Below, piece by piece: positions 2 to 45,221 of a stretch of 61,282 nt of DNA; the stretch's first letter is position 1; every line of letters begins with the position of its first letter. Under the pieces are notes generated by a model, which made no database searches, was not told the origin of the DNA, and saw only the letters and a list, made by a program, of their open reading frames with translations. This DNA is from an uncultured Alphaproteobacteria bacterium (GTDB lineage: Bacteria > Pseudomonadota > Alphaproteobacteria > RF32 > CAG-239), in assembly GCA_944390375.1 (NCBI GenBank), contig CALXPZ010000101.1, positions 1 to 61,282 of the forward strand, in the 5' to 3' direction. The position numbers and the translations under genes were made by a program.

Positions 2-877
2 GGACCGGAGGCCGTGATCGTGTCCACCTCGCAGGCGGCGGACGGCCGTAGCGAGCTGGTGGCCGCGGTCGAAAATGACGAAATCGGGTTTTCCGGCGAC
101 GCTCCGCAGGTCTATCCCGCCGCTTACAGCGATACCGCTATCCGCGAACGGCTCGATTATCACGAAACGGGGACGACCGCCTGCGCAAAGCTGCTGGCAC
201 TCTGCCGGCAAAAAGCGGTGCAAAGCGGCAAAAAAGACGATGCCGGCATTTTAACCGCCGTCTTTGACGATTTGTTTTCGTCTTACGACATATTGGGCGG
301 CAGCCAGGTCAAACTGTTTGCCGGGCTTCAGGGCAGCGGCAAAACGACGGCTCTGGTCAAAACGGCGGCTTTGGCCCGTTTTCGCAAAATTCCGTCGGCT
401 CTGATCAGCGCCGACGGCGTGCGGGCCGGTGCCAACGCGCAGTTGCAGTCTTTTGCTTCTGTTCTGGAGGCGGATTTTCAGGCGGTTCGGGAGCCGGAAG
501 AATTGTCGGCGGCGGTCTTCCGTGCCCGTGAAAAATATCCTCTGGTATTGGTGGATACACCCGGGGTTAATCCTTTTTCCGAAACCGAGATCAAACGCTT
601 GTCCGGGCTGATAAAGGCCGCCGGCGGAGAGGCAATTTTAACCATGGACGCCGGATTTAATGCCTATGATGCAGGCGAAACGGCGGCTTTGTTCGCGTCC
701 GCGGGTGTTTCCTGCCTGCTGCCGACCAAGCTGGATCTCTGCCGTCGGATCGGCGGTGTTTTGACGGCCGCCGTCGAGGGCGGGTTCAAACTCGGCTGGG
801 CGTCCGTTTCGGCTCATGTTTCCAAGGGGCTGATGCCGCTGGATAATCCTTCGCTGGCGCAGTTGCTGTTGGCATAA
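2..877 (+). CDS. flhF: Flagellar biosynthesis SRP-type GTPase FlhF, probably 5'-truncated by the window edge
   Basis: The frame is open to position 2. P-loop GLQGSGKTT and LVDTPG motifs are present, and flhG follows directly. Confidence 0.8.
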   Translation, partial: GPEAVIVSTSQAADGRSELVAAVENDEIGFSGDAPQVYPAAYSDTAIRERLDYHETGTTACAKLLALCRQKAVQSGKKDDAGILTAVFDDLFSSYDILGGSQVKLFAGLQGSGKTTALVKTAALARFRKIPSALISADGVRAGANAQLQSFASVLEADFQAVREPEELSAAVFRAREKYPLVLVDTPGVNPFSETEIKRLSGLIKAAGGEAILTMDAGFNAYDAGETAALFASAGVSCLLPTKLDLCRRIGGVLTAAVEGGFKLGWASVSAHVSKGLMPLDNPSLAQLLLA

Positions 878-881
878 GAGG

Positions 882-1694
882 ATGACGGAAATGTTTGCGG
901 AAAATCTGACAGCCGTTCCCCGCGGTTTACGCCTCCGGCAGGAAAACAGAATGATTGCGGTTGCCTCGGGCAAAGGCGGCGTCGGCAAAACCTGGTTTTC
1001 AATTACTCTGGCTCACGCCTTAAGCGGGCTGAAACAGAAAACTCTGCTTTTTGACGGCGATCTCGGCATGGCCAACATAGATGTTCAGTTGGGGCTGATG
1101 GTGCCGCATGATCTCGGCAGCGTGGTTACCGGCAGCGCGACCCTAAATCAGGTGGTTCATTATTGCGACAAATGCCGTTTTGACGTTATTGCCGGTCGTT
1201 CCGGTTCTGCCGGGCTGGCGTCCATGCCGATCGGCCGGCTGCAGATTCTGGCCGAAGACCTGATGCTTTTGTCAGGGGCTTACGACAAAGTGATTCTTGA
1301 TATGGGAGCGGGGGTAGAAAACCCGATTCGTATCTTGTCCGGGATGTCGGGACGGGTGATCGTCGTATGCACCGATGAGCCGACGGCCTTGACCGACGCC
1401 TATGCTTTTGTTAAGTTGATGGCCATGCAATATCCCAAATGCCGGGTCGAAATTGTCGTCAACCAGGCCGATTCTCTGCGAGAGGGGCGTCAGACATACG
1501 ACATTTTGTACAAAGCCTGCCAGACCTTTTTAAAAATTTCTCCGCCGCTTTTGGGAATTGTCCGCCGGGATGCGCGGGTTCGCGACGCGATTCGCAGCCA
1601 GATGCCACTGATCAGTCGTTATCCGACTTCCGAAGCGGCTGCCGATGTCATCGAAATTGCGAGAAAAATTTTACGGGATGAAAAAAATGTATGA
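882..1694 (+). CDS. flhG: MinD/ParA-family flagellar number regulator FlhG (FleN/YlxH)
   Basis: Deviant Walker A VASGKGGVGKT and a MinD-like body. It starts 4 nt after the flhF stop. Confidence 0.8.
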   Translation: MTEMFAENLTAVPRGLRLRQENRMIAVASGKGGVGKTWFSITLAHALSGLKQKTLLFDGDLGMANIDVQLGLMVPHDLGSVVTGSATLNQVVHYCDKCRFDVIAGRSGSAGLASMPIGRLQILAEDLMLLSGAYDKVILDMGAGVENPIRILSGMSGRVIVVCTDEPTALTDAYAFVKLMAMQYPKCRVEIVVNQADSLREGRQTYDILYKACQTFLKISPPLLGIVRRDARVRDAIRSQMPLISRYPTSEAAADVIEIARKILRDEKNV

Positions 1695-2888: not shown

Positions 2889-3338
2889 TCAGCGGCCTTT
2901 GTCCACGGCAACCGGTTCAAATTCCCAGGGAAAAACCAGCCAGCGGCCGGGTGCTTTTTCCGCGGCCGGAAAGTCAAGTGGCGCCTCCGGGTTTTTGCTG
3001 AATAAAACGGCAATTTTGGTTTGCGGGTATTTTTCTTTTAAATAGCGGTATGTGCTGCCGGAGTCGTACAGGTCGTCGACAAACAGCGTTTTCTCATCCA
3101 TCCGGATATCCGGCGGCACCAGACACTTGATGTCGGAACGTGCCTCGCCATTGTAGCTTGCAAGCGAGATGCTGCTGATTTTCCGGATGCCGAGAAATTG
3201 AGCCAGAATACATGCCGGCACCAACCCGCCGCGGGCAACCGCGATAATCCGTTCAAAACCTTTCCCGGCCAGCAGATAGGCCAGCCGTTTGCATTCGGCG
3301 TTGATTTCCTCGTAGCTGATATATTCTTTTTCCGCCAT
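2889..3338 (-). CDS. gpt: Xanthine-guanine phosphoribosyltransferase
   Basis: 149 aa, colinear with E. coli Gpt. Motifs IIAVARGGLVP and the PRPP loop VDDLYDSGST are present. Confidence 0.8.
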   Translation of the reverse strand: MAEKEYISYEEINAECKRLAYLLAGKGFERIIAVARGGLVPACILAQFLGIRKISSISLASYNGEARSDIKCLVPPDIRMDEKTLFVDDLYDSGSTYRYLKEKYPQTKIAVLFSKNPEAPLDFPAAEKAPGRWLVFPWEFEPVAVDKGR

Positions 3339-4132
3339 CAGTCGGCTCCCTTCATACTGAATTGCTCGATTGTTTTGGCCAGGCCGCTCCGGTCGTCGGT
3401 TTCTACCACGATTCCCCAGACAGTTCCGCCGCTGCGGCAGACTTCAAGCCGATTCCCATTATAACGCTGGCAGAGACGGTCAATCGGCGCCTGTTTGTCA
3501 AAACCGAGCACGGAATCATAATTGCCGCACATCCCGACGTCGGTAATATAGGCGGTGCCGCCGTTTAAGATATGGGCGTCGGCGGTCGGAATATGAGTGT
3601 GGGTGCCGGCAACAATGGAAACCCTGCCGTCGAGATAATGCCCGAGGGAAAGTTTTTCCGAAGTCGATTCGGCGTGTACATCAACAAAAACAGCGTCAAT
3701 ATTGCGTCCCAGGGTATAATTTTTTAAAAGCCGGTCGAGAACAAAGGCCGGATTGTCGACACTGTCCATAAACACCCGTCCCAAAACCTGGGTGATAAGG
3801 ATTTTTTTGCCGTTTGCCAGTTCAAATTCCACGGCTCCTCGGCCGGGTGCCGTTTCCGGATAGTTCAACGGTCGGATGATGCGTTTGCTTTCATCTAAGA
3901 AGGGGACAATTTCCCGCTGCTGCCAGACGTGGTTGCCGGTTGTCAATAGGTCGGCGCCGCGTTCAAGAAATTCGCGGGCGATTCCCGGTGTTACGCCGAA
4001 ACCGTGGGCGGCATTTTCAGCATTGACGATAATCACGTCGGCATTGTATTTTTCGCGCATCAGCGGCAGGTTGTTCAAGACGGCATCTCTGCCCGCGCGG
4101 CCGACGACATCTCCCAGATAAATGATTTTCAA
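3338..4132 (-). CDS. YmdB-like metallophosphoesterase (TIGR00282 family)
   Basis: KIIYLGDVVGRAGR, NAENAAHGFG, GNHVW and THTHIPTAD motifs. I place the start at TTG 4132, which is preceded by GGAG; the track ORF extends to 4243 through non-homologous sequence. Its stop overlaps the gpt start (TGATG). Confidence 0.85.
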   Translation of the reverse strand: MKIIYLGDVVGRAGRDAVLNNLPLMREKYNADVIIVNAENAAHGFGVTPGIAREFLERGADLLTTGNHVWQQREIVPFLDESKRIIRPLNYPETAPGRGAVEFELANGKKILITQVLGRVFMDSVDNPAFVLDRLLKNYTLGRNIDAVFVDVHAESTSEKLSLGHYLDGRVSIVAGTHTHIPTADAHILNGGTAYITDVGMCGNYDSVLGFDKQAPIDRLCQRYNGNRLEVCRSGGTVWGIVVETDDRSGLAKTIEQFSMKGAD

Positions 4133-4151
4133 TAATATTCTCCGTCGTTTG

Positions 4152-4180
4152 ATTAAAAAAAACTCCGTTTCCGGAGTTGA
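4152..4180 (-). terminator. Intrinsic terminator after the 6S RNA candidate
   Basis: On the minus strand: AACTCCGGAAACGGAGTT hairpin followed by a T8 run. Confidence 0.65.
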
Positions 4181-4189
4181 TAAGGTATA

Positions 4190-4358
4190 AAAGTAAAGAG
4201 AGAACCGTCGGGCCGTATAGTTACATTCTGTCTCGAACCGCATCTCACTAGGTGGGCGTCATATAACAGGACCACGATCCTGTCAGGGACAACTCCCGGA
4301 AAAATTACGTTGGCTCGGAAGATCTGCGGAATTACGCACCAAACAGTTATCTCTCCAT
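4190..4358 (-). ncRNA. ssrS: 6S RNA (SsrS) candidate
   Basis: About 165 nt of non-coding sequence immediately downstream of zapA, the conserved position of ssrS. The 5' GGAGAGATAACTGT can pair with the 3' ACGGTTCTCTCTT as a closing stem. There is an internal hairpin ACAGGA-tcgtgg-TCCTGT. A TATAGT -10 box overlaps the zapA stop, and a terminator follows. Confidence 0.55.
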
Positions 4359-7425: not shown

Positions 7426-7473
7426 GCTCACAAAATTTTGTGTGCTGAAAACAAAAAAAGAAAGGACAAACAA

Positions 7474-8346
7474 ATGACAGCCCCGTTAATGCCTAAAGCA
7501 ACAGCCGTCTGGCTGGTCGAAAATACGACTTTGACTTTTAAACAAATCGGCGATTTCTGCGAACTGCACGAACTGGAAGTACAGGCGATAGCCGACGGTG
7601 ATGTCGCTTTTAACATTGTCGGTCTCAATCCGGTTACCGGCGGTCAGTTGACGGCGGAAGAAATTGCCCGTTGTGAGCAGGATCCTGCGGCGGCACTGGT
7701 CGGTGTGGAGCCGGAGCGCAACGTAAAAGCCCAGAACAGCAAAAACAAAAAAGTGTTGTCGCCGTCCCAGCGCAGCGACAAACCTGCGGCTGTTTTGTGG
7801 ATTCTGCGAAATTGTCCGGAAATTATGGATTCTCAGATTTGTAAGCTGATCGGCACCACCAAGCCGACGATTGCGGCATTGCGCGACGGCACCCACCGGG
7901 ATATGGCCAATATCCGTCCGAAGAATCCGGTTGCAATCGGTTTGTGCAAAGAAAAAGACCTTGATGACGCCATTGCCGTTTCCAAAAAGTGGAACGAGCA
8001 GAAAAACAGTCCCAAAAAGAAAACGGTCAAAAAGAAAACCGCTAAGGCCAAAATGAAGGAAAAAGCGGCCAAAGCCGCCGCCAAAAAGAAAGAGGCAGAA
8101 AAGATAAAAGCTGCGGCAGCCAAGAAAAAAGAAGCCGCCAAGAAAAAAGCGGAAGCAGCGAAAATAAAGGCTGCCGAAAAGAAAAAAGTCGCCGCCGCCA
8201 AGAAAAAAGAAGCGGCTAAAAAGAAAGCGGAAGCCGCCAAGGTAAAAGCGGCCGCCAAAAAAGCAGCGGCCAAAGAAAAAGCCGCAGCCAAAAAGAAGGC
8301 CAAAAAAGCTCCTAAAAAAGCGGCCAAAAAGACAGCCAAAGCTTAA
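7474..8346 (+). CDS. DUF1013/TrcR-family cell-cycle regulator with Lys/Ala-rich histone H1-like C-terminal tail
   Basis: The N-terminus PLMPKATAVWLVENTTLTFKQIGDFCELHELEVQAIADG matches DUF1013. The start is placed at ATG 7474 after AAAGGA. The C-terminal ~120 aa are almost entirely K/A/E. Confidence 0.8.
   Translation: MTAPLMPKATAVWLVENTTLTFKQIGDFCELHELEVQAIADGDVAFNIVGLNPVTGGQLTAEEIARCEQDPAAALVGVEPERNVKAQNSKNKKVLSPSQRSDKPAAVLWILRNCPEIMDSQICKLIGTTKPTIAALRDGTHRDMANIRPKNPVAIGLCKEKDLDDAIAVSKKWNEQKNSPKKKTVKKKTAKAKMKEKAAKAAAKKKEAEKIKAAAAKKKEAAKKKAEAAKIKAAEKKKVAAAKKKEAAKKKAEAAKVKAAAKKAAAKEKAAAKKKAKKAPKKAAKKTAKA
8119..8253 (+). repeat. Internal 78-nt (26-codon) direct duplication inside the Lys/Ala tail
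   Basis: GCCAAGAAAAAAGAAGC.GC.AA.AA.AAAGCGGAAGC.GC.AA..TAAA.GC occurs at 8119 and again at 8197. It encodes AKKKEAAKKKAEAAK(I/V)KAA twice. Confidence 0.7.
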
Positions 8347-21883: not shown

Positions 21884-22186
21884 ATGCTTAAAATAGACAT
21901 CATGGCAATATTAAACTCAGTATTAAACACGATTGCGTTTATTGACAGTATTATTTTGGCTGGCTTTGCTTTATATGTGGTAGAGCGTAGCCCGGCATCG
22001 CCGATCCCGGCTTTAATATGTGCTTTTATACCTTTAGTCATTGATTCGATAATCTCGCATATTTTAATCAAAAACAAGCGGGAAGATTCTCCATATTTTA
22101 TTCCGGAACATAAATGGAAATACAATTTTCCTGTATTGGTAGGCATTCTCCTGATTATAATAGGAATCTATTTGTTTTATATGTAG
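21884..22186 (+). CDS. 100-aa three-TM protein, tandem paralog 1
   Basis: AAGGAAGG RBS and three hydrophobic helices. Confidence 0.75.
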   Translation: MLKIDIMAILNSVLNTIAFIDSIILAGFALYVVERSPASPIPALICAFIPLVIDSIISHILIKNKREDSPYFIPEHKWKYNFPVLVGILLIIIGIYLFYM

Positions 22187-22245
22187 AGGCACGACAGGAT
22201 GAAGAACAGCGGCAGGAAATCATATTTAATACAGGAGCTCAAACC

Positions 22246-22548
22246 ATGCTTAAAATAGACGTCATGGCAATATTAAACTCAGTATTAAACACGATTGCGT
22301 TTATTGACAGTATTATTTTGGCTGGCTTTGCTTTATATGTGGTAGAGCGTAGCCAGGCATCGCCGATCCCGGCTTTAATATGTCTTTTTATATCTTTTGT
22401 CGTTGATTCGATAATCTCGCATATTTTAATCAAAAACAAGCGGGAAGATTCTCTATATTTTACTCCGGAACATAAATGGAAATACAATTTTCCGATAGAT
22501 GTAGGTATTTTCCTGATTATAATAGGAATCTATTTGTTTTATATGTAG
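22246..22548 (+). CDS. 100-aa three-TM protein, tandem paralog 2
   Basis: AGGAG lies 8 nt before ATG 22246. The track ORF 22114 is an upstream read-through. It is nearly identical to paralog 1. Confidence 0.75.
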   Translation: MLKIDVMAILNSVLNTIAFIDSIILAGFALYVVERSQASPIPALICLFISFVVDSIISHILIKNKREDSLYFTPEHKWKYNFPIDVGIFLIIIGIYLFYM

Positions 22549-22607
22549 AGGCACGACAGTATGGAAAATAACGGCAGGAAATCACATTTAATATAGGAGC
22601 TCAAACC

Positions 22608-22907
22608 ATGATTAAAATAGACGTCATAACAATATTAAACTCAATATTAAAATATATTGCGTTTATTGATTGTATTATTTTGGCCGGCTTTGTTGTTTAT
22701 TTGGTAAATTTTAGCCAGGCATCGCCAATCCCGGCTTTTATATGTCTTTTTATACTTTTTGTCGTTGATTTGATAATCTTGCATATTTTAATCAAAAACA
22801 AGCGGGAAGATTCTCCATATTTTGCTCCGGGATATGGTTGGCAATATCATCTTCCGATAGATATAGGCGTTTTCCTGATTATGGCAGGAATCTATTTATT
22901 TCCTTAG
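22608..22907 (+). CDS. 99-aa three-TM protein, tandem paralog 3 (more diverged)
   Basis: It has the same RBS context (AGGAGCTCAAACCATG) and the same architecture. Confidence 0.75.
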   Translation: MIKIDVITILNSILKYIAFIDCIILAGFVVYLVNFSQASPIPAFICLFILFVVDLIILHILIKNKREDSPYFAPGYGWQYHLPIDIGVFLIMAGIYLFP

Positions 22908-22985: not shown

Positions 22986-23061
22986 TGGTGAGCCCGACGG
23001 GATTCGAACCCATGACCCTTTGATTAAAAGTCAAATGCTCTACCAGCTGAGCTACGGGCCC
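22986..23061 (-). tRNA. tRNA-Lys (anticodon UUU), CCA encoded
   Basis: The reverse complement reads GGGCCCGTAGCTCAGCTGGTAGAGCATTTGACTTTTAATCAAAGGGTCATGGGTTCGAATCCCGTCGGGCTCACCA. It folds as a cloverleaf with a 7-bp acceptor stem, anticodon loop CTTTTAA and a GGTTCGAATCC T-arm. Confidence 0.95.
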
Positions 23062-23222: not shown

Positions 23223-23537
23223 ATGTCAGAAACAAAGAATTCACAGCAGACCGGACGTTATGATATGCTGCAGAATGCTGCCGGCGAGATACTCATTATC
23301 ATCGAGTACCGCGAGGGCGGGCCCGAAAATCCCCGTTTGGTATATGACGGCGGCGATCAGGCTCTTCTCTACCGCAGCCGCGAAAGCGCTTTTATGCTGA
23401 ATTCTATTGCAGAGGAAGCGCGTATGCCTTTGAAATCGGTAAACGAAGTGCTTATGGTCGAAATTGAAAACGACGACGTCGCCAGAGAATATAAAGTTCC
23501 CGTCCGCGTGGTCAGAAATCTGCAGGCCTTGGCATAA
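23223..23537 (+). CDS. Small conserved hypothetical protein, paralog of 55154-55447
   Basis: PRLVYDGGDQALLYRSRESAFMLNSIAEEARMPLKSVNEVLMVEI aligns with PELVYNGSDAALLYRTASDVLVLDKLHEEAQKHLKQVSSVVIVEA. The start is uncertain (23166, 23223 or 23262). Confidence 0.6.
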   Translation: MSETKNSQQTGRYDMLQNAAGEILIIIEYREGGPENPRLVYDGGDQALLYRSRESAFMLNSIAEEARMPLKSVNEVLMVEIENDDVAREYKVPVRVVRNLQALA

Positions 23538-23567
23538 AAAAGCAAAAAAATATTCAACAAGTAACAG

Positions 23568-23598
23568 ATAAGGGCTTTAAAAGCCCTTATTTCTTGTT
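23568..23598 (+). terminator. Hairpin / weak terminator
   Basis: ATAAGGGCTT-taa-AAGCCCTTAT hairpin plus TTCTTGTT. Confidence 0.45.
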
Positions 23599-23634
23599 AT
23601 TATCGAACATAAATAATAAAACACGGAAAAATAA

Positions 23635-25290
23635 ATGCTGGTTAATCTGCTTGTTTTGATTTTGGGTGCAGGGTTGATCTCCGAGCTGGTTCCCAAAAAC
23701 CGCCTGCCGGTGCTGTGGTCGCTGTTTTCTTCGGCTGCGGTTCTTTATTTTATCTACAAACTGTCGCAGCTTGGGATGTCGCCGGACATCTACGTCAACT
23801 ATCCGTGGCTGAAAATCCCCAATTTGTCGATTAACCTGGAGATAGGCATAAATTCTCTCAATGTCTGCCTGGTTTTTGTTTTGCTGATTTTGGCGCTGCT
23901 GTCGCTGATGCAGAATACTTTTGGAACGGAAACGGCCAAAAATTCATTAAACGGGCTGATTTTGTTTAATCTGCTGTCGGCGTTGATGCTTGTTTTTGCC
24001 AACAACTATATCCAGATGCTGGTGGCTGTCGGCGCCTGCGATGTTTTGGTGTTCAGCACGATCAACAACGTCAATGCCAAAAAGAAATATATTTACGCCA
24101 ATTTTTTGGCCGACATCGGCCTGGTCAGCATTTTTGCCGTTATTCTCGGCCACGGCGGCGGGTTGGAGTTAAAAGATCTGGGGGATTACTCTCAGTTTGG
24201 TCATCACAAAGACTTTGTGGCGATTCTGCTGCTGCTTTGCATCTTTATAAAAAGCGGTTTGTTTTTATTCCACGGCACCTATACGGATATTGCCTCGCTC
24301 GGGTTCAACCGGCTTAATTTTGTTTTGTTTGCGGCCACGCCGCTGATCGGTTATCTGGTATTTTTAAAAACGGAAGCTCTTTTATCCATTTCGTCCTATT
24401 CTTACCCCTTGCTTAAAATGTTTTCGCTGGCGTCCGTCGCCTGGGGTGTTTTCGGCGTGCTGGCCATTGACCACATCAAACAAAAATCGGTGTATTTTGC
24501 GCTGATGTTCTGGGGGGCGGTTTATGCTTTTGCCGCTTTCGGCTGCCGGTTGGAAATTCTGGATTTTGCCGGTTTTCTTCTTTCCGCCTTTTTGTTCGGG
24601 CAGGTCTTGATGTTGTTTTACACGGCGGCGTCTAACGAAACCAACATTTCGGAAATGGGAGGTTTTATCAAAAACCTGAAATTTATGTTTGTCCTCTTGC
24701 TTGTGGTGCTGGCTGCATATTTTGATGTTTTGCTTTCTCTGCAAACAAAAAATATTTGGCTGACCTGGGCATACATTTTGTTGTTTTCTTTGGCGTCGGC
24801 CCATGTCTTGTCTCAAATTTTGCTGGGGGAGAGCAGAGCGGACGAGCGGGTGCAGGCCATGCTGAAAAATCCGTCTCCGGCGTTGTGGGGACCGGTTGCC
24901 GTAGCCGCGGCAATGCTCTGCTGGCATTTTCGCGAACAGTTTTTATGGCTTGCCGCCGTATCGGCTTGCTGGCTTATGTTGTTTATTTTCCGCCCGTTGC
25001 GGCGTCTGGATAAATGGTATGAAAACGAAGATCTTCAAGAGGCCGATTATTTCAGCACGGCATACGAACTGCTGATTATCACGCCGGTCAAGGTTATCGG
25101 GCGTTTGCTGTGGTTGGCGGTCGATTTTGTGTTTATTGAACGCACGATTATCAATTCCGTGCAAAATGCGCTGACATTTCTGATCTTTTTGCTGCGCCGT
25201 CTTCATTCGGGGACGACGCTTCGCTCGCTGCTGTTTGTGTTGTTTGGCTTTGCCGTTATTTATGCGGTATGGCGTTTCGGGGGCAGGTAA
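23635..25290 (+). CDS. NuoL-like (complex I / Mrp antiporter-like subunit), highly divergent
   Basis: 551 aa and polytopic. IKSGLFLFH corresponds to the KSAQFPLH motif. The C-terminal DYFSTAYELLIITPVKVIGRLLWLAVDFVFIERTIINSV resembles the NuoL lateral-helix region. Confidence 0.7.
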   Translation: MLVNLLVLILGAGLISELVPKNRLPVLWSLFSSAAVLYFIYKLSQLGMSPDIYVNYPWLKIPNLSINLEIGINSLNVCLVFVLLILALLSLMQNTFGTETAKNSLNGLILFNLLSALMLVFANNYIQMLVAVGACDVLVFSTINNVNAKKKYIYANFLADIGLVSIFAVILGHGGGLELKDLGDYSQFGHHKDFVAILLLLCIFIKSGLFLFHGTYTDIASLGFNRLNFVLFAATPLIGYLVFLKTEALLSISSYSYPLLKMFSLASVAWGVFGVLAIDHIKQKSVYFALMFWGAVYAFAAFGCRLEILDFAGFLLSAFLFGQVLMLFYTAASNETNISEMGGFIKNLKFMFVLLLVVLAAYFDVLLSLQTKNIWLTWAYILLFSLASAHVLSQILLGESRADERVQAMLKNPSPALWGPVAVAAAMLCWHFREQFLWLAAVSACWLMLFIFRPLRRLDKWYENEDLQEADYFSTAYELLIITPVKVIGRLLWLAVDFVFIERTIINSVQNALTFLIFLLRRLHSGTTLRSLLFVLFGFAVIYAVWRFGGR

Positions 25291-26733
25291 ATGGAAAATC
25301 TGGGATCTTTGATTAATGCGGTTATTTTGATTCCGCTGTTCGGCGTTTTGTTTGCCTCGCTTTCCCGCGAGGGCGGCCGCGAACGGGTCAGCAATGTTCT
25401 TTGTGTCGGCATTTTTACGGTTTTATCCAACTTGGTGGTTTTGTGGCGTGCGGCGCTGCTGATTGACCTGGATAAAGACGGCTGGCAGGTGGTTGAAAAA
25501 TTTACCTGGATTAAAAATCCGAAAATTGAGCTGGTTTTCGGCATTGATATTTTTTCTCTGATGCTGATTGCCGCGGTTCACTTGGCCGTGTTGCTCGGCA
25601 TGGTCGGCATCAGGCATAACACATACCGCCAAAAAGCGCTGATTGTTTGTGCTCTGCTGTTTTTGAGCATGATCAGCGGCTATTTTTTGGCCTCCGATTT
25701 CTTTTCTTTTTATATCTTTTTTGAGGCCATGCTGTTGCCGCTGTTTATGCTGATAGGTATTTTCGGCGACATCAAAAAGCAACAGATTCTTTACCGTTTT
25801 TTCCTCTACAACCTGTTGGGAGCCGTCTTTTTGTTTGTTGCCCTGATCGTGCTCTACAATTATCAGAATGTCAGCATCCGGGAAGTCAGCCGGATTGTGC
25901 TGTCCGGACACGGTGAAGCATTGGTCTGGGGATCGATTTTTATTGCTTTTTTGTCGCGGATTCCCGTATGGCCGTTCCACTACTGGATATCTTCGGTCAA
26001 TGTAAACATTTCCAACCCGCTGGTATTTATCATTGCCAACATCATTCCTTTAAGCGGTGTTTACGGGTTGATCCGCTTTTTCCCGGTCAATGCACCGGAA
26101 GTTTTGGATCCGTATTTGTTGATTCTTGAAGTGGTCAGCATTATCACGATGTTGATGATTGCCTTAATCGGTTTTACCAAAAAAGACATTCAGTACAAAA
26201 TATTTTCCTATATGACGGTATACTATATTTTATATCTTCTGGGGGCTTTGCTGCCGACGGACGCGCTTTTGATGAATATCGGGTTTTCCCTGTTTTCCTA
26301 TTTGATAATCGTTGCCGCGTTGGAGGTTTTGGTGGCTCATCTTGATAATGAATGTCAGAGCAAAGAAATCGGTGAGTGCGGCGTTTTGTGCGCCGTTCCC
26401 CGTACGTCTTTGATGTTCTCATTTTTGATTTTGGCGGCGATCGGTATGCCGCTGTCGTCGGTTTTCCTGAATAATATGGTTATTTTTTCCGGATTGCTGA
26501 AATTTAACATCAAAATGGCGGTATGTATTTTGCTGGCCGTTATGTTGGCCTCCGTCAGCCTGCTGCAACAGCTGTTTTACCTGAAATACCCGCCGGAAAC
26601 GGACGAACCCCTGCCGCCGGTTCCGGAAGAATGCCGGGCAGCCGACATTTCTCTGAGGGTGTTTGCGGTGATGCTGCTGACGGCGGCACTGTTGGTGCTG
26701 TCTTTCATTAACCCGTTGTGGTTTATCGGATAG
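25291..26733 (+). CDS. NuoM-like antiporter-like subunit, divergent
   Basis: FYIFFEAMLLPLFMLIGIFG, FFLYNLLGAVFLFVALIVLY and PVWPFHYW match NuoM signatures. The start abuts the previous stop. Confidence 0.8.
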   Translation: MENLGSLINAVILIPLFGVLFASLSREGGRERVSNVLCVGIFTVLSNLVVLWRAALLIDLDKDGWQVVEKFTWIKNPKIELVFGIDIFSLMLIAAVHLAVLLGMVGIRHNTYRQKALIVCALLFLSMISGYFLASDFFSFYIFFEAMLLPLFMLIGIFGDIKKQQILYRFFLYNLLGAVFLFVALIVLYNYQNVSIREVSRIVLSGHGEALVWGSIFIAFLSRIPVWPFHYWISSVNVNISNPLVFIIANIIPLSGVYGLIRFFPVNAPEVLDPYLLILEVVSIITMLMIALIGFTKKDIQYKIFSYMTVYYILYLLGALLPTDALLMNIGFSLFSYLIIVAALEVLVAHLDNECQSKEIGECGVLCAVPRTSLMFSFLILAAIGMPLSSVFLNNMVIFSGLLKFNIKMAVCILLAVMLASVSLLQQLFYLKYPPETDEPLPPVPEECRAADISLRVFAVMLLTAALLVLSFINPLWFIG

Positions 26734-26742
26734 GAGGGAAAA

Positions 26743-28164
26743 ATGCTGGTCAATTACATAGCGTTGCTGCCGGAGTTATTTTTGTTGACGGGGATTTTGC
26801 TGATGGTGCCGGTTTATTTTTTCCGTTCTGCCAACACGCCGAAAACTTTTTATACCATGAGCAAGTGGATTATTTTGACCTCTGTTGTGCTGACCGCCGT
26901 TTTTTACGATCGCAGCATCGGCAGGGTTTGGATCAATAATGATTATACGACGCTTTTTAAAATCATTATTTATCTTTTTTCTCTTGCCTGGGGCGGTCTT
27001 TCCCTCAAACGTTTCCAAAACAGGGACGATCGGAGTTTTTCTTTTTACTTTATACTGTTGCTGTGCCTGCTCGGCTTTTCGCTGGCGCTTTCTTCCCGCC
27101 TGCTGTGGCTTTCGGCGGGAGCGCTGACGTTCTGCCTGCTTCTGAACTATCCGCTGTTAAAGATTGATGAGGAAGAAGAATACATTTCCCGCCACCGGCA
27201 ATATCTCTTTTTTGCTCTGATGTTTTCCCTGCTGCTTTGGGTCGGGGTTTGGCTTTTGCAGCGGGGAACGGGTAGCGCGGACTATTCGGAAATCAGAGGT
27301 TTCCTTCTGGCAGCGGAAGAGAACGTGCCGGGAAAATTGCAGTTGGCTTTTGTGCTGATTATGGTCTTTTTCCTTTTTGCGCTGGGCGTGGCGCCTTTTC
27401 ACTTCTGGTTTGCCGATGCCGTTTCGGGGACAATTTTGCCGGTCGCCGGCTATCTGAGCATTGTGCCGGGGGTGGCGTATTTTGCCGTTTTGCTCAATCT
27501 GGTTCTAAATGCTCTGGATCCGCTTTATCCGTGGTTTGAAACGGTTATGCTGATTTTTGGCATATCGTCCGTGTTTATCGGTGCGGTCGGAGCCAACAGC
27601 GAAGACGATTTAAGGCGCATATTTGCTTATGCCGAGTTGTATTATATAGGAGTGCTGTTGCTGTCTGCGTCGAATATGCAGGGGCAGAGTCTGCTCGGAT
27701 CGCTGATTTATTTGCTGGTTTATGTGTTGGCTTTGTTCGGCATTTACACCGTTTTTTCCGGTTGCCGCTACAAAGGGGAATATCTCTATCGGCTGGACGA
27801 GGTTCGCGGGCTTTCCACCCGTCGGCCGCTTTTGGCTGCGGCATTGCTGTTTTTTATGATTTCTCTGATCGGCACCCCGCCGCTCTTAGGGTTCCTCGGC
27901 AAGCTTTCGGTTATTAATTCCCTGGTTGCCGGCGGCAGCTACGGCTTAATGGCGGTGGTTGCCTTTTCCGTGCTGGTTTTGGTTGCCGCTTATCTGAAAA
28001 TCATCACCGCCGTCTACTTTGAGCCGCGCAATATTAGCTTTGACAGGGTGGATAAAGGGGTATATATATATATGGCAATTAATATTCTCCTGATTATCGC
28101 CACCATTTTGAACCCCCGGTATCTGATGCACGATGTGGAAATGATGCTGGCCGCGATTATATAA
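26743..28164 (+). CDS. NuoN-like antiporter-like subunit, divergent
   Basis: 473 aa and polytopic. LGVAPFHFWFADA and IGTPPLLGFLGKL match NuoN patterns. GGAGGG RBS. Confidence 0.7.
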   Translation: MLVNYIALLPELFLLTGILLMVPVYFFRSANTPKTFYTMSKWIILTSVVLTAVFYDRSIGRVWINNDYTTLFKIIIYLFSLAWGGLSLKRFQNRDDRSFSFYFILLLCLLGFSLALSSRLLWLSAGALTFCLLLNYPLLKIDEEEEYISRHRQYLFFALMFSLLLWVGVWLLQRGTGSADYSEIRGFLLAAEENVPGKLQLAFVLIMVFFLFALGVAPFHFWFADAVSGTILPVAGYLSIVPGVAYFAVLLNLVLNALDPLYPWFETVMLIFGISSVFIGAVGANSEDDLRRIFAYAELYYIGVLLLSASNMQGQSLLGSLIYLLVYVLALFGIYTVFSGCRYKGEYLYRLDEVRGLSTRRPLLAAALLFFMISLIGTPPLLGFLGKLSVINSLVAGGSYGLMAVVAFSVLVLVAAYLKIITAVYFEPRNISFDRVDKGVYIYMAINILLIIATILNPRYLMHDVEMMLAAII

Positions 28165-28176
28165 GGAAAAGTTTCA

Positions 28177-28893
28177 ATGTGGCAGTGTTTGGATTATGAC
28201 GAACTGGGCAGCACCAACGACAAGGCCCTTGAACTGGCGGAAAAAGCAACCGGTGGAAAATATGCGGTAACGGCGGCCAGGCAGACAAACGGACGCGGGC
28301 GCCGCGGACGCAGCTGGATCGGGATGGACGGAAATTTGTTTTTGTCGCTGGCCTTTCCCTTTCCCGCGGAAAAGAGTGCGGCTCTGGTATTGATGTCGTC
28401 ATTGGCGCTCTTGGAAGCGGTTAAACAGCTGACCCCCTCGGCCGCCGTGGTTTTGAAATGGCCGAACGACGTACTGCTGAACGGCGCCAAAATATCAGGC
28501 ATTTTGCTGGAAAAGGGAGCCGACGGATATATGGTTGTCGGTATCGGTGTCAATGTCAGGGCGGCGCCCGCCGGCAGTGTGATCTATCCGGTAACCAGCC
28601 TGGCGGCGGCGGGGATAGAAACCGACCGGCAGGCGTTTAAGGAAATTTATCTGCGGCAATTTGACGGTCTGATGGATTTTTATGCCAAAGAGGGAATGGC
28701 CGCGCTGGTGTCGGAGTGGCTGCGCCATGCCGCCGGCGTCGGCAAAAAGATTTCCGTCCGGCTGCCGAAAACGATAAAAGAAGGAATTTTTTCCGGCCTG
28801 GACGAGGAAGGCCGGCTGATTTTGCAAACGGTGACCGGAGCGGAAATCATCAGCGCCGGCGACGTGTTTTTTAAAGATGATGAAAGCGAATGA
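28177..28893 (+). CDS. birA: Biotin--[acetyl-CoA-carboxylase] ligase (no HTH domain)
   Basis: QTNGRGRRGRSW, KWPNDVLLNGAKISGILLE. Confidence 0.9.
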   Translation: MWQCLDYDELGSTNDKALELAEKATGGKYAVTAARQTNGRGRRGRSWIGMDGNLFLSLAFPFPAEKSAALVLMSSLALLEAVKQLTPSAAVVLKWPNDVLLNGAKISGILLEKGADGYMVVGIGVNVRAAPAGSVIYPVTSLAAAGIETDRQAFKEIYLRQFDGLMDFYAKEGMAALVSEWLRHAAGVGKKISVRLPKTIKEGIFSGLDEEGRLILQTVTGAEIISAGDVFFKDDESE

Positions 28894-30641
28894 AAATGAT
28901 AAACAAATTTGAAAAAGACGGATTGTATTTTGTAGCTTTGGGCGGCGCCGACGAGATCGGTATGAATATGTATGTTTACGCCCATAACGGCAAATTTATT
29001 ATGGTCGACGCCGGTTACGGTTTCTTAAACGACAACTATCCGGGCATGGATTTATGTTTTGCCGATGCCGGCTTTTTTGCCAACTATGCCGAAGATTTTG
29101 AAGGCATTTTTATTACCCACGCCCACGAAGACCATTTCGGCGCCATTGCCCATGTCTGGCCGCTTTTGAAATGCCCGGTTTACGCCGGCGAATTTACGCT
29201 CGGGCTGATTAAAAACCGCCTGCGCGAATATAAACTGGAGAACGAAGTTCCGCTGACCCCGGTGGTCGGCCGCCAAACCATTGAACTGCAAAATTTTTCG
29301 GTGGAGTTTGTTCCGGTTGTGCATTCGGTGCCGGAAACCGCAGCTCTGGTGATAAAAACGGCGGATAAAACGGTTGTCCACGCAACCGATTGGCGTTTTG
29401 ACGACAATGCCATCGAAATTTTAAAAACCGACTACGCCGGGCTGGAAAACGCCGGCCGGCAGGGCGTGGATATGTTTGTTTGCGATTCCACCAATATCGA
29501 GGTTAAAGAAAAGCTGCCGAGTGAGTTTGAAGTGCGCGAATGCCTGTTAAAGTTGATACCCACGCTCAAAAACACGGTGGTCGCCACCTGTTTTGCCTCC
29601 AATCTGACCCGTTTGGAAAGCCTGATAATGGCCGCCGACGCCGCCGGCCGCACGCCGGTTTTGGTCGGTCGCAGCCTGCTTTACAATATGAAAGTTGCCA
29701 AAGAAATCGGCTATTTTAAGAACACGCCCAAATGTTATGACATCAGGGAGGCAGAAGACATTCCTTCCGACAATGCGCTCTACATCTGTACCGGCTCGCA
29801 GGCCAACTACCGTTCGGCGCTGACTTCGATTGTCAACAACCAGAGCAAATATGTCAAACTTGCCAAAGGCGATACGGTAATTTTTTCTTCCAAAATCATT
29901 CCCGGCAACGAGGAAAAAATCAGCGAAATGCAGGAAAAGCTGATTGCCATGAGCGTCAATGTCATCACCGACCGGGATACGCTGGTTCATACGTCGGGAC
30001 ACTGCAGCAAGGAAGAAATCCGCAAAATGTACGACATTTTAAAACCGCGGATAGTGCTGCCGGTTCACGGCGACAAAAAGTTTATCCGTGAGCATAAACG
30101 GTTTGCGGCGGAATGCGGAATTAAAGAAGTGATCAGTATGCAAAACGGCGATGTCCTGCTGCTGAAAGGTAATCAGGCCAAAATTGCGGGCGACGTGCCG
30201 ACCGACGTGCTGGCCGTTGACCGCACGGAAATCGTGTCGCTTAATTCCGAAGTGGTCAAGCGCCGCAAGCAGATTGCCTATAACGGCAGCGTCTTCATCA
30301 GCGTCATCTTCGGGGAAAAATGGGAACTGATTGCCCTGCGCATTTCTTCCAAAGACATTTTGCAACCGGATGCCTTTGCCGCATTGCGCGACCGGATTGT
30401 GGAAGAAGTTTCCGAAGCTCTGCCGGAAGTGGCGGCCGGTCTGCATTATAAAGAAACGGCCATTTTGGACTATATCCGGGTTCAGGTACGCCGCAAAATC
30501 GAAAAAGCAACCGAGATGAAACCGGTTACATTCATCCACTTCTACAAACTGCCGCTTGAAGAAGAAAAAATCGAGCAGGAAGAAGATGTGGATGCCGGTC
30601 AGCCGATGGTTATTTATCCTTCACCGGAAATTGAAAACTGA
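28890..30641 (+). CDS. rnj: Ribonuclease J (metallo-beta-lactamase / beta-CASP)
   Basis: THAHEDHFGA, DSTN and HTSGHCS motifs. It overlaps the birA stop (ATGA). Confidence 0.9.
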   Translation: MKMINKFEKDGLYFVALGGADEIGMNMYVYAHNGKFIMVDAGYGFLNDNYPGMDLCFADAGFFANYAEDFEGIFITHAHEDHFGAIAHVWPLLKCPVYAGEFTLGLIKNRLREYKLENEVPLTPVVGRQTIELQNFSVEFVPVVHSVPETAALVIKTADKTVVHATDWRFDDNAIEILKTDYAGLENAGRQGVDMFVCDSTNIEVKEKLPSEFEVRECLLKLIPTLKNTVVATCFASNLTRLESLIMAADAAGRTPVLVGRSLLYNMKVAKEIGYFKNTPKCYDIREAEDIPSDNALYICTGSQANYRSALTSIVNNQSKYVKLAKGDTVIFSSKIIPGNEEKISEMQEKLIAMSVNVITDRDTLVHTSGHCSKEEIRKMYDILKPRIVLPVHGDKKFIREHKRFAAECGIKEVISMQNGDVLLLKGNQAKIAGDVPTDVLAVDRTEIVSLNSEVVKRRKQIAYNGSVFISVIFGEKWELIALRISSKDILQPDAFAALRDRIVEEVSEALPEVAAGLHYKETAILDYIRVQVRRKIEKATEMKPVTFIHFYKLPLEEEKIEQEEDVDAGQPMVIYPSPEIEN

Positions 30642-44492: not shown

Positions 44493-45221
44493 ATGGAACA
44501 GGTCATTTTCTGGGGCATATTGTTTATAGCCGGAGCGGCCGGTTATCTGCTGACCGAGCGGGCGGCCGGACGTTCGCTTTTGCGCCGGCCGGACAAGTCG
44601 GCGGCTCTGCATTACGCGCTGAAAAATTTTCGCCGTGTTTCTCCCCAAATGGTGCGCAGACTGGTACAGGAGGGCGCCAACGTCAATTATATCGGCACTT
44701 TCGGCGAACCGCCTCTGGTGGCGGCATTGTCGCGCCGCCGGAGCCTGCCGGTTATCCGCGAGCTGATTAAAGCCGGCGCTCGGACGAACGGGGAAGGCGA
44801 ATTAAAGAAAAATCCGCTGATGGCGGCCGTTTATTATCGCAACCGGCCGGAGATTATCCATGAGCTCCTTGCCGCCGGAGCGAATCCGCAGGTTTGCCTG
44901 GACGGGGACGGCAGCAGCCTGTTGATGCTGACGGCGGCTTTTTATCATCAAGAGGAAATGCTGGAAACCCTGCTTGCCAAAGGCAATAAATTGGACGCCC
45001 GTAACGATGACGGGATGACGGCGCTGATGGCGGCGGTGCGCTTCGGGCATAATCCGCGCGCCGTAAAAAAACTGTTGGCGCTCGGTGCCGATAAAAATCT
45101 TTCCGACAACAGCAGCAAAACGGCGGCCGACTACTTGCGCGGCAATTTCCGGCTGTGCTGGCGTCCCGGATTGAGGCGGCTTTTGCCCCGGCAGAAGAAA
45201 GAACCGTTTGTCAAACTTTAA
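44493..45221 (+). CDS. Ankyrin-repeat protein with N-terminal TM anchor
   Basis: At least 4 ANK repeats (e.g. DGMTALMAAVRFGHNPRAVKKLLALGADKN) after the hydrophobic segment VIFWGILFIAGAAGYLL. Confidence 0.85.
   Translation: MEQVIFWGILFIAGAAGYLLTERAAGRSLLRRPDKSAALHYALKNFRRVSPQMVRRLVQEGANVNYIGTFGEPPLVAALSRRRSLPVIRELIKAGARTNGEGELKKNPLMAAVYYRNRPEIIHELLAAGANPQVCLDGDGSSLLMLTAAFYHQEEMLETLLAKGNKLDARNDDGMTALMAAVRFGHNPRAVKKLLALGADKNLSDNSSKTAADYLRGNFRLCWRPGLRRLLPRQKKEPFVKL

Follow-up and report, generated by a model that had tools for sequence, protein, structure and literature searches.

We focus here on three adjacent genes at positions 23635-28164 of a 61,282-nucleotide (nt) stretch of DNA, hereafter the window, from an uncultured alphaproteobacterium (GTDB lineage RF32; CAG-239; assembly GCA_944390375.1, contig CALXPZ010000101.1). 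The genes encode NuoL, NuoM and NuoN, membrane subunits of complex I, in canonical order, and they are a vertically inherited remnant (nuoLMN) of the alphaproteobacterial nuo operon. They are not pseudogenes, and purifying selection acts on them as strongly as on the housekeeping genes around them. We propose, with moderate confidence, that their products (together L-M-N) still assemble into a membrane complex, but into a static one that no longer works as a redox-driven proton pump and is instead a scaffold or 'pseudo-transporter'.

The three open reading frames (ORFs) are intact, abut one another on the + strand, and specify an L-like protein of 551 amino acids (aa; 23635-25290), an M-like protein of 480 aa (25291-26733) and an N-like protein of 473 aa (26743-28164). 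The M- and N-like proteins match PF00361 with E values of 4.9e-32 and 6.1e-33, respectively. Their best NCBIfam models are NuoM (TIGR01972, 190 bits) and NuoN (TIGR01770, 212 bits), in each case under the curated cut-off (263.8 and 332.6 bits), and among solved structures the M-like protein is closest to Nad4 of plant mitochondria and to NuoM of Paracoccus. The L-like protein, taken as a single sequence, has no match in Pfam, NCBIfam or PDB. A profile built from 25 members of its family matches Paracoccus NuoL (8qby_L) with an E value of 4.8e-15 and in two pieces, the first of which covers the antiporter core (3-363) while the second aligns residues 462-550 with 612-700 of 8qby_L, leading into the lateral helix and the last transmembrane helix. 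The AlphaFold (AF2) model of the L-like protein (pLDDT 83, pTM 0.85) shows the N-terminal helices and beta-hairpin, a broken transmembrane helix 7 (TM7) and a C-terminus made of long helices at 472-495 and 499-524 and a final helix at 528-548; in Foldseek, the top matches of this model are NuoL/ND5 chains, with TM-scores of 0.72-0.75 to Paracoccus. Profile, AF2 model and an equivalent of E. coli D563 thus agree on a NuoL-type C-terminus, in which a lateral helix is followed by the last transmembrane helix. The antiporter-like fold of PF00361 is found in all three proteins, by Pfam for M and N and by profile and predicted fold for L, and it is because of these Pfam, NCBIfam, profile and structural matches that we identify the trio as NuoL-NuoM-NuoN, the homology that an earlier note on this DNA had proposed.

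The position of the trio speaks to its origin. The N-like gene is followed after a gap of 12 nt by birA (biotin-protein ligase; 28177-28893, +; TIGR00121, 155 bits against a cut-off of 83.1), with which it probably shares an operon, and birA overlaps by 4 nt with rnj (RNase J; 28890-30641, +; PF22505, TIGR00649 family), which marks the end of the conserved block. The place of birA is conserved in all related loci, and the tightly packed L-M-N-birA-rnj genes probably form one transcript. Canonical loci of Rickettsiales carry rnj (L036, L038) or birA (L071) immediately after nuoN, and this adjacency supports the placing of the L-M-N block at the 3' end of an ancestral nuo operon, where the earlier note had also put it. 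The same order, nuoA-N followed by birA and RNase J, is presumably present in Sinorhizobium.

Both the M-like protein and RNase J have relatives in a species-level genome collection, all of them from uncultured gut Alphaproteobacteria of humans, ruminants, birds and rodents. Among their labels are 'uncultured Azospirillum sp.', 'Acetobacter sp. 46_36' and also Candidatus Scatocola, which NCBI assigns to Rhodospirillales. The block, consisting of a gene for a 104-aa protein, L-M-N, birA and rnj, recurs in 33 and about 45 further species-level genomes, often with the same histidine kinase and mutS genes 3' of rnj. Intact ORFs were counted 75 times for L, 78 for M and 78 for N, and their lengths are nearly constant (L about 550-560 aa, M about 471-480 aa, N about 468-476 aa). 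The best match of the M-like protein to NuoM outside this clade is only 28-29% identical. For the L-like protein, a HMMER scan of 1.84 billion representatives returned 140 clusters at E < 1e-30, and the members that NCBI has named are always called 'hypothetical protein'. This has a bearing on genome annotation, in which the L-like protein goes under 'hypothetical', and metabolic reconstructions of these metagenome-assembled genomes will probably take the M- and N-like proteins as a sign of complex I.

Possible exceptions to ORF integrity, each a candidate lesion or assembly error, are an L-like ORF of just 428 aa at 8692-9978 of L021 and the N-like genes of L099 and L126, which tblastn recovers as pieces in two frames. 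A subgroup of L-like proteins of about 517-523 aa (P0228, P0230, P0232, P0240, P0243, P0244) matches the profile in two separate stretches, of which the main one takes in no more than the first ~325 residues, which suggests a variant C-terminal half.

The genes that would connect L-M-N to a source of redox energy are missing from its surroundings. The search for them covered the 61-kb window and 10-kb flanks, in all some 85 loci and ~1.5 Mb of clade sequence. With E. coli NuoA-K as queries, tblastn gave no match in the window and 33 loci (637 kb) or in 54 rnj-anchored loci (931 kb), the sole exception being three weak NuoI matches of ferredoxin-like type at a distance of about 10 kb; these queries did recover the genes in canonical loci wherever the upstream flank was available. 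The local lack of nuoA-K to which the earlier note had drawn attention is thus real and holds for related loci. The rest of the window carries housekeeping genes, and no respiratory gene was found there. Near the trio, there are no matches to the small subunits MrpB, C, E, F and G or to NuoK/MrpC-like proteins, and none of the neighbouring genes carries DabA (PF10070). The relative Azospirillum sp. CAG:239 has been described as a strict anaerobe without terminal oxidases, which ferments with pyruvate:ferredoxin oxidoreductase (PFOR) and [FeFe]-hydrogenase and whose [FeFe]-hydrogenases have NuoE/F-like partners (PMC6431628, PMC4967309). It is on these published statements about a relative that a loss of respiration in the organism of the window, which the earlier note had suggested, would rest. 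We infer that partners are absent from the rest of the genome too, and that no redox module drives L-M-N.

The residues expected to carry protons tell a similar story, and they do so differently in each subunit. For the counts, 75-78 members of the clade were aligned with 26-46 canonical sequences and with the E. coli proteins, whose numbering is used here unless the window is named. In the M-like protein, titratable residues have been exchanged for fixed polar ones: K173 is Arg in 75 of 78 members (R169 in the window), K234 is Arg in 77 (R223), H322 is Tyr in 74 (Y312) and E407 is Asn in all 78 (N395). Two further positions are occupied in all 78 by Leu, Val, Ile or Phe (K265; L254 in the window) and by Tyr, Phe or Trp (H348; Y337), and the TM5 Glu, E144, is kept in 41 of 78 (E145). 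The N-like protein has become hydrophobic and variable at its former channel sites: E133 (T129 in the window), K217 (A213) and K247 (G243) are kept in none of the 78 members, with a single Arg at K247, and each of these positions varies across the clade; K395 in TM12 (K387) is Lys or Arg in 38 of 78. The L-like protein keeps an acid/base set only in the first half of its length. In the first half, D178 of TM6 (D160 in the window) is Asp or Glu in 75 of 75 members and K229 of TM7 (K206) is Lys in all 75; E144 of TM5, the Glu of the 'WEGVG' motif, is kept in none (Phe, Cys or Gly instead), and an Asp three residues past it (D136 in the window) is present in 59 of 75. Further along, H254 of TM8 and H334 and H338 of TM11 are kept in 0 of 75, K342, K399 and D400 (TM11-12) have no aligned residue, and a clade-specific Arg is new in TM8 (R226 in the window; 72 of 75). 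The absence of residues aligned with K399/D400 refers to the alignment anchored on E. coli; in the L-like model, TM12 is predicted as a continuous helix. In the lateral helix, D563 (D497 in the window) is again Asp or Glu in 75 of 75, and the C-terminal motif PxKxxGRxLWLxVDFxFIER is conserved.

Taken together, among 12 positions in TM5, TM7, TM8 and TM12 only K229 of L is kept in all members, and the former titratable chain has given way to Arg, Asn and Tyr in M and, in N as well as in the second half of L, to hydrophobic residues. L-M-N also contains many residues that are invariant within this clade and specific to it, and the best-kept features are the lateral-helix region, its Asp and charges near subunit contacts, a placing which we take from published complex I structures. 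The individual losses that the earlier note had listed, namely the 'WEGVG' Glu of L, two Lys of M (K234 and K265) and K217, K247 and E133 of N, are all borne out by alignment with E. coli. Its broader description, a module depleted in channel charges, was right in that the losses extend across the clade; the pattern is, however, more structured than depletion, and M-E145, N-K387 and L-D160, K206 and D497 (window numbering), which it had missed, are kept. It had also missed the Asn that replaces E407 in every M-like protein.

One further pattern links two subunits. M-E144 and N-K395 are kept or lost together, with 36+36 concordant genomes and 5 discordant ones, and the window belongs to the half of the clade that keeps both. 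Parsimony on a neighbour-joining tree places the loss of M-E144 at a single split of the clade. We thus do not regard the co-variation as proof of an N-M contact: as the change in M happened once and the pattern is essentially one event, it is suggestive only, and consistent with such a contact.

Such losses could be read as decay, and selection argues otherwise. The ratio of nonsynonymous to synonymous substitution rates (dN/dS) was calculated by the Nei-Gojobori method between the window and the closest separate species (L001), at dS of 0.43-0.62. It is 0.087 for the L-like, 0.034 for the M-like and 0.112 for the N-like gene, the M-like gene being the most constrained of the trio, compared with 0.042 for rnj, 0.046 for mutS, 0.038 for the histidine kinase, 0.043 for the 104-aa gene and 0.208 for birA. 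Neither frameshifts and stops throughout the relatives nor dN/dS near 1 is what we find: the ORFs are intact in 75-78 genomes and dN/dS is 0.03-0.11, and L-M-N are therefore not decaying pseudogenes. Over the long term, the divergence of L-M-N is far above that of canonical subunits. Median identity within the clade, to canonical sequences and among canonical sequences (mixed Proteobacteria) is 25%, 14% and 50% for L, 42%, 22% and 52% for M, and 31%, 20% and 35% for N. Since most residues of the proton path have been replaced while purifying selection remains strong, the proteins must do something other than their textbook job, and the 'repurposed membrane arm' offered as one of two possibilities in the earlier note fits both the intact ORFs in about 75-78 species and dN/dS values like those of rnj and mutS.

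We thus favour the following course of events. The tail of an alphaproteobacterial nuoA-N operon would have been inherited vertically while nuoA-K were removed, leaving nuoL, nuoM, nuoN, birA and rnj as one tightly packed unit. The three proteins would still be made and would still fold as antiporter-like subunits. They would most likely assemble side by side into a trimer, in which L would use its lateral helix as a clamp onto M and N. A role as the redox-driven, proton-pumping arm of complex I would no longer be possible, because the redox and quinone modules do not adjoin the trio and because the Lys/Glu/His chain along the centre of the membrane has been replaced. The complex would instead have been kept for a different job, for which a non-pumping scaffold is the role that we favour. 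The features that are retained, namely D178, K229 and D563 of L, its C-terminal motif and the N-K395/M-E144 pairing, suggest that the proteins still assemble.

Several observations weigh against this reading. First of all, the losses in M have been filled by conserved polar residues (R169, R223, N174, Y231, N242, Y312, N394 and N395), a set more suggestive of a polar pathway that is being maintained than of a plain scaffold. Second, the first half of L keeps its acid/base set, with D136 in 59 of 75 members, D160, K206 and the new R226 in 72 of 75. Third, the M-E144/N-K395 co-variation corresponds to one split of the tree and thus adds no independent evidence. Furthermore, the search reached as far as the flanks, and a separate set of nuoA-K, Mrp, Hyf/Ech or other partners may be encoded elsewhere. 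Finally, L-M-N is dispensable in at least one background. In the deep related lineage L101 of gut Alphaproteobacteria (JAZNSB010000020.1, 8991-11656), a homologue of the 104-aa gene is followed after 12 nt by birA and then rnj, without L-M-N, and its rnj is 58-60% identical to those of clade members; this is a clean natural deletion of nuoLMN, which shows that the module can be lost. Low G+C content alone does not predict such a loss, as loci down to 29% G+C keep the module.

The alternative that survives best, which we regard as possible but rather doubtful, is that L-M-N is a working non-canonical transporter or conduction pathway, be it a leak for cations, protons or anions, an antiporter or a transporter of some other small solute. 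It would use the clade-specific polar network of M, with two buried Arg as well as Asn and Tyr, together with the Asp, Lys and Arg of the first half of L. The M-like protein is indeed as constrained as rnj and mutS (dN/dS 0.034), its former axis positions hold conserved polar rather than hydrophobic residues, and in L both D160 and K206 are kept in all members while R226 has been gained. Isolated NuoL, or NuoL/NuoN, reportedly carries out or complements cation transport of the Mrp type. On the other hand, there is no continuous titratable chain through the module: none of the three proteins has the TM8 Lys/His, all 78 M-like proteins have Asn in place of the TM12 Glu, and in L nothing aligns with the TM12 Lys, yet a TM12 Lys/Arg of N is present in 38 of 78. 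Protons are carried poorly by Arg, Asn and Tyr, N seems inert, the TM5 Glu of M is gone in half of the clade, and neither Mrp small subunits nor a DabA-like partner is encoded nearby. Only tentatively, then, can L-M-N be seen as a self-standing membrane machine that evolved from the distal arm of complex I after its redox modules were discarded, with a new conduction or transport activity built on the clade-specific network of Arg, Asn and Tyr in M and on the Asp, Lys and Arg of L.

A second alternative, which we consider unlikely, is that L-M-N remains the membrane arm of a larger energy-converting complex, with nuoA-K or an Ech/Hyf/Mbh/Fpo-like module encoded elsewhere after the operon was split. 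In its favour, the sequence examined covers the window and flanks, nuo operons are split in other Alphaproteobacteria, with gaps between nuo genes in Rickettsiales loci, and relatives carry NuoE/F-like genes beside [FeFe]-hydrogenase (PMC4967309). However, such an arm would need the very proton-path residues that have been replaced throughout the clade, and the scores lie under the curated NuoM and NuoN cut-offs. Moreover, median identity to canonical subunits is 14-22%, as against 35-52% among canonical subunits from different proteobacterial classes, no nuoA-K was found within 10 kb in the ~85 loci, and a relative is reported to be without any terminal oxidases (PMC6431628). Least of all do we credit the view that the genes are non-functional relics, not yet disrupted and tolerated for promoter or translational coupling of the essential birA-rnj pair: their much greater divergence than that of canonical subunits, their tight packing in what is probably one transcript and the clean deletion in L101 would fit, but this is a very remote prospect given about 4.5 kb of ORF intact in some 75-78 species at constant lengths and at identities down to 16-33%, dN/dS of 0.03-0.11, which together also contradict the 'very slowly decaying relic' of the earlier note, many clade-specific invariant residues, and the fact that a need for transcription alone would not preserve an amino-acid sequence.

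The 104-aa gene (23223-23537, +) is the usual upstream neighbour of L-M-N and lies in that position in most related loci. Its conserved product is soluble and mostly beta, with 30 positions invariant in the clade; it has no credible match in Pfam (E up to 10) or in the PDB profile search, and Foldseek found no credible match to its AF2 model (pLDDT 79.5). The family has 561 database matches, and the best 120 of the 561 all come from close relatives and are called 'hypothetical protein' wherever they are named. We considered it as a partner of L-M-N or as an unidentified reading frame of the nuo operon and rejected both, as it adjoins birA in L101 without L-M-N and lies elsewhere in L008 and L022. 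It probably forms a transcription unit of its own, without being specific to L-M-N. Between it and the L-like gene, a scan based on consensus only marks a terminator-like hairpin (23566-23592, +) and an overlapping promoter-like site (23576-23603, +).

Further upstream, the tRNA gene and the AT-rich stretch mentioned in the earlier note are indeed present, as a tRNA-Lys(UUU) (22986-23061, -) and a region of lower G+C content (0.39-0.42). Inside this region, upstream of the tRNA, lie three tandem copies of a gene for a predicted membrane protein of 100 aa (21884-22907), with a period of 362 nt and 81-95% identity; a near-identical contig (L081) has a slightly different layout of the copies, and they look like a strain-specific island. 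They were considered as stand-ins for NuoK, NuoA or NuoJ and rejected, having no Nuo similarity and no counterpart in 134 related loci. Elsewhere in the window, a 6S RNA (Rfam RF00013, 67.8 bits) lies at 4198-4352 on the - strand, just upstream of a YmdB-like ORF (3338-4243) and slightly overlapping its annotated start. The start of the window (14-1694) holds a pair made up of an SRP54-type GTPase (FlhF-like) and a MinD/ParA-type ATPase, a homologue of the cell-cycle regulator TrcR lies at 7438-8346, and an ankyrin-repeat protein (PF12796, E 6e-30), of a kind uncommon in free-living bacteria, is encoded at 44493-45221 beside several ORFs without a Pfam match.

To our knowledge, complex I is usually lost whole or leaves behind its soluble NADH module; here it is the distal membrane arm alone that survives, and it does so across a large radiation of gut bacteria. 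In the literature on RF32, CAG-239, nuoLMN and orphan or remnant NuoL/M/N, we found no description of such a module. The ordered exchange in NuoM (Lys to Arg, Glu to Asn and His to Tyr) provides a natural 'dead pump' series, from which it could be learned which features of antiporter-like subunits serve structure and assembly, which serve proton transfer, and what else the fold can do. The module also adds a case to the reductive evolution of respiration among relatives of mitochondria. If L-M-N did turn out to have a new conduction or transport activity, this would be relevant to the physiology of gut anaerobes across an entire order-level group.

Among known systems, the nearest is complex I itself, of alphaproteobacterial and mitochondrial type, whose NuoL/M/N (Nqo12/13/14; ND5/ND4/ND2) have in common with the present trio the fold, the L-M-N order, the position upstream of birA/rnj and, in NuoL, the lateral helix and terminal transmembrane helix. 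The differences are that nuoA-K adjoin there and not here, that the curated scores are missed, that most titratable residues of the proton path are replaced, and that the L-like protein, at 551 aa, is about 60 residues shorter than the 613-aa NuoL of E. coli. The Mrp (Mnh/Pha) antiporter likewise uses PF00361 subunits without a redox module, and MrpA and MrpD chains are found as weaker matches here. Mrp, however, has kept the Glu/Lys/His network, and it depends on MrpB, C, E, F and G, which are all missing near L-M-N, where the neighbours are the 104-aa protein, birA and rnj; the MrpA extension is unlike the C-terminus of L, which matches NuoL, and Mrp models score below Nuo models. DabB with DabA and the cyanobacterial CO2-uptake NdhD3/F3-CupA systems are similar in that antiporter-like proteins have been recruited beyond respiratory pumping. 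They have a dedicated soluble partner encoded adjacently, whereas the neighbour of L-M-N is a 104-aa protein without a detectable family that stays behind when L-M-N is gone; both systems presumably also retain their channel charges. L-M-N is thus neither an Mrp nor a DAB system. Finally, the complex I remnants of hydrogenosomes (NuoE/NuoF) are likewise a fragment kept for another purpose after aerobic respiration was abandoned (PMC4967309). These remnants, on the other hand, keep the soluble NADH-oxidising module, and L-M-N represents the opposite end of the same enzyme, the distal membrane arm.

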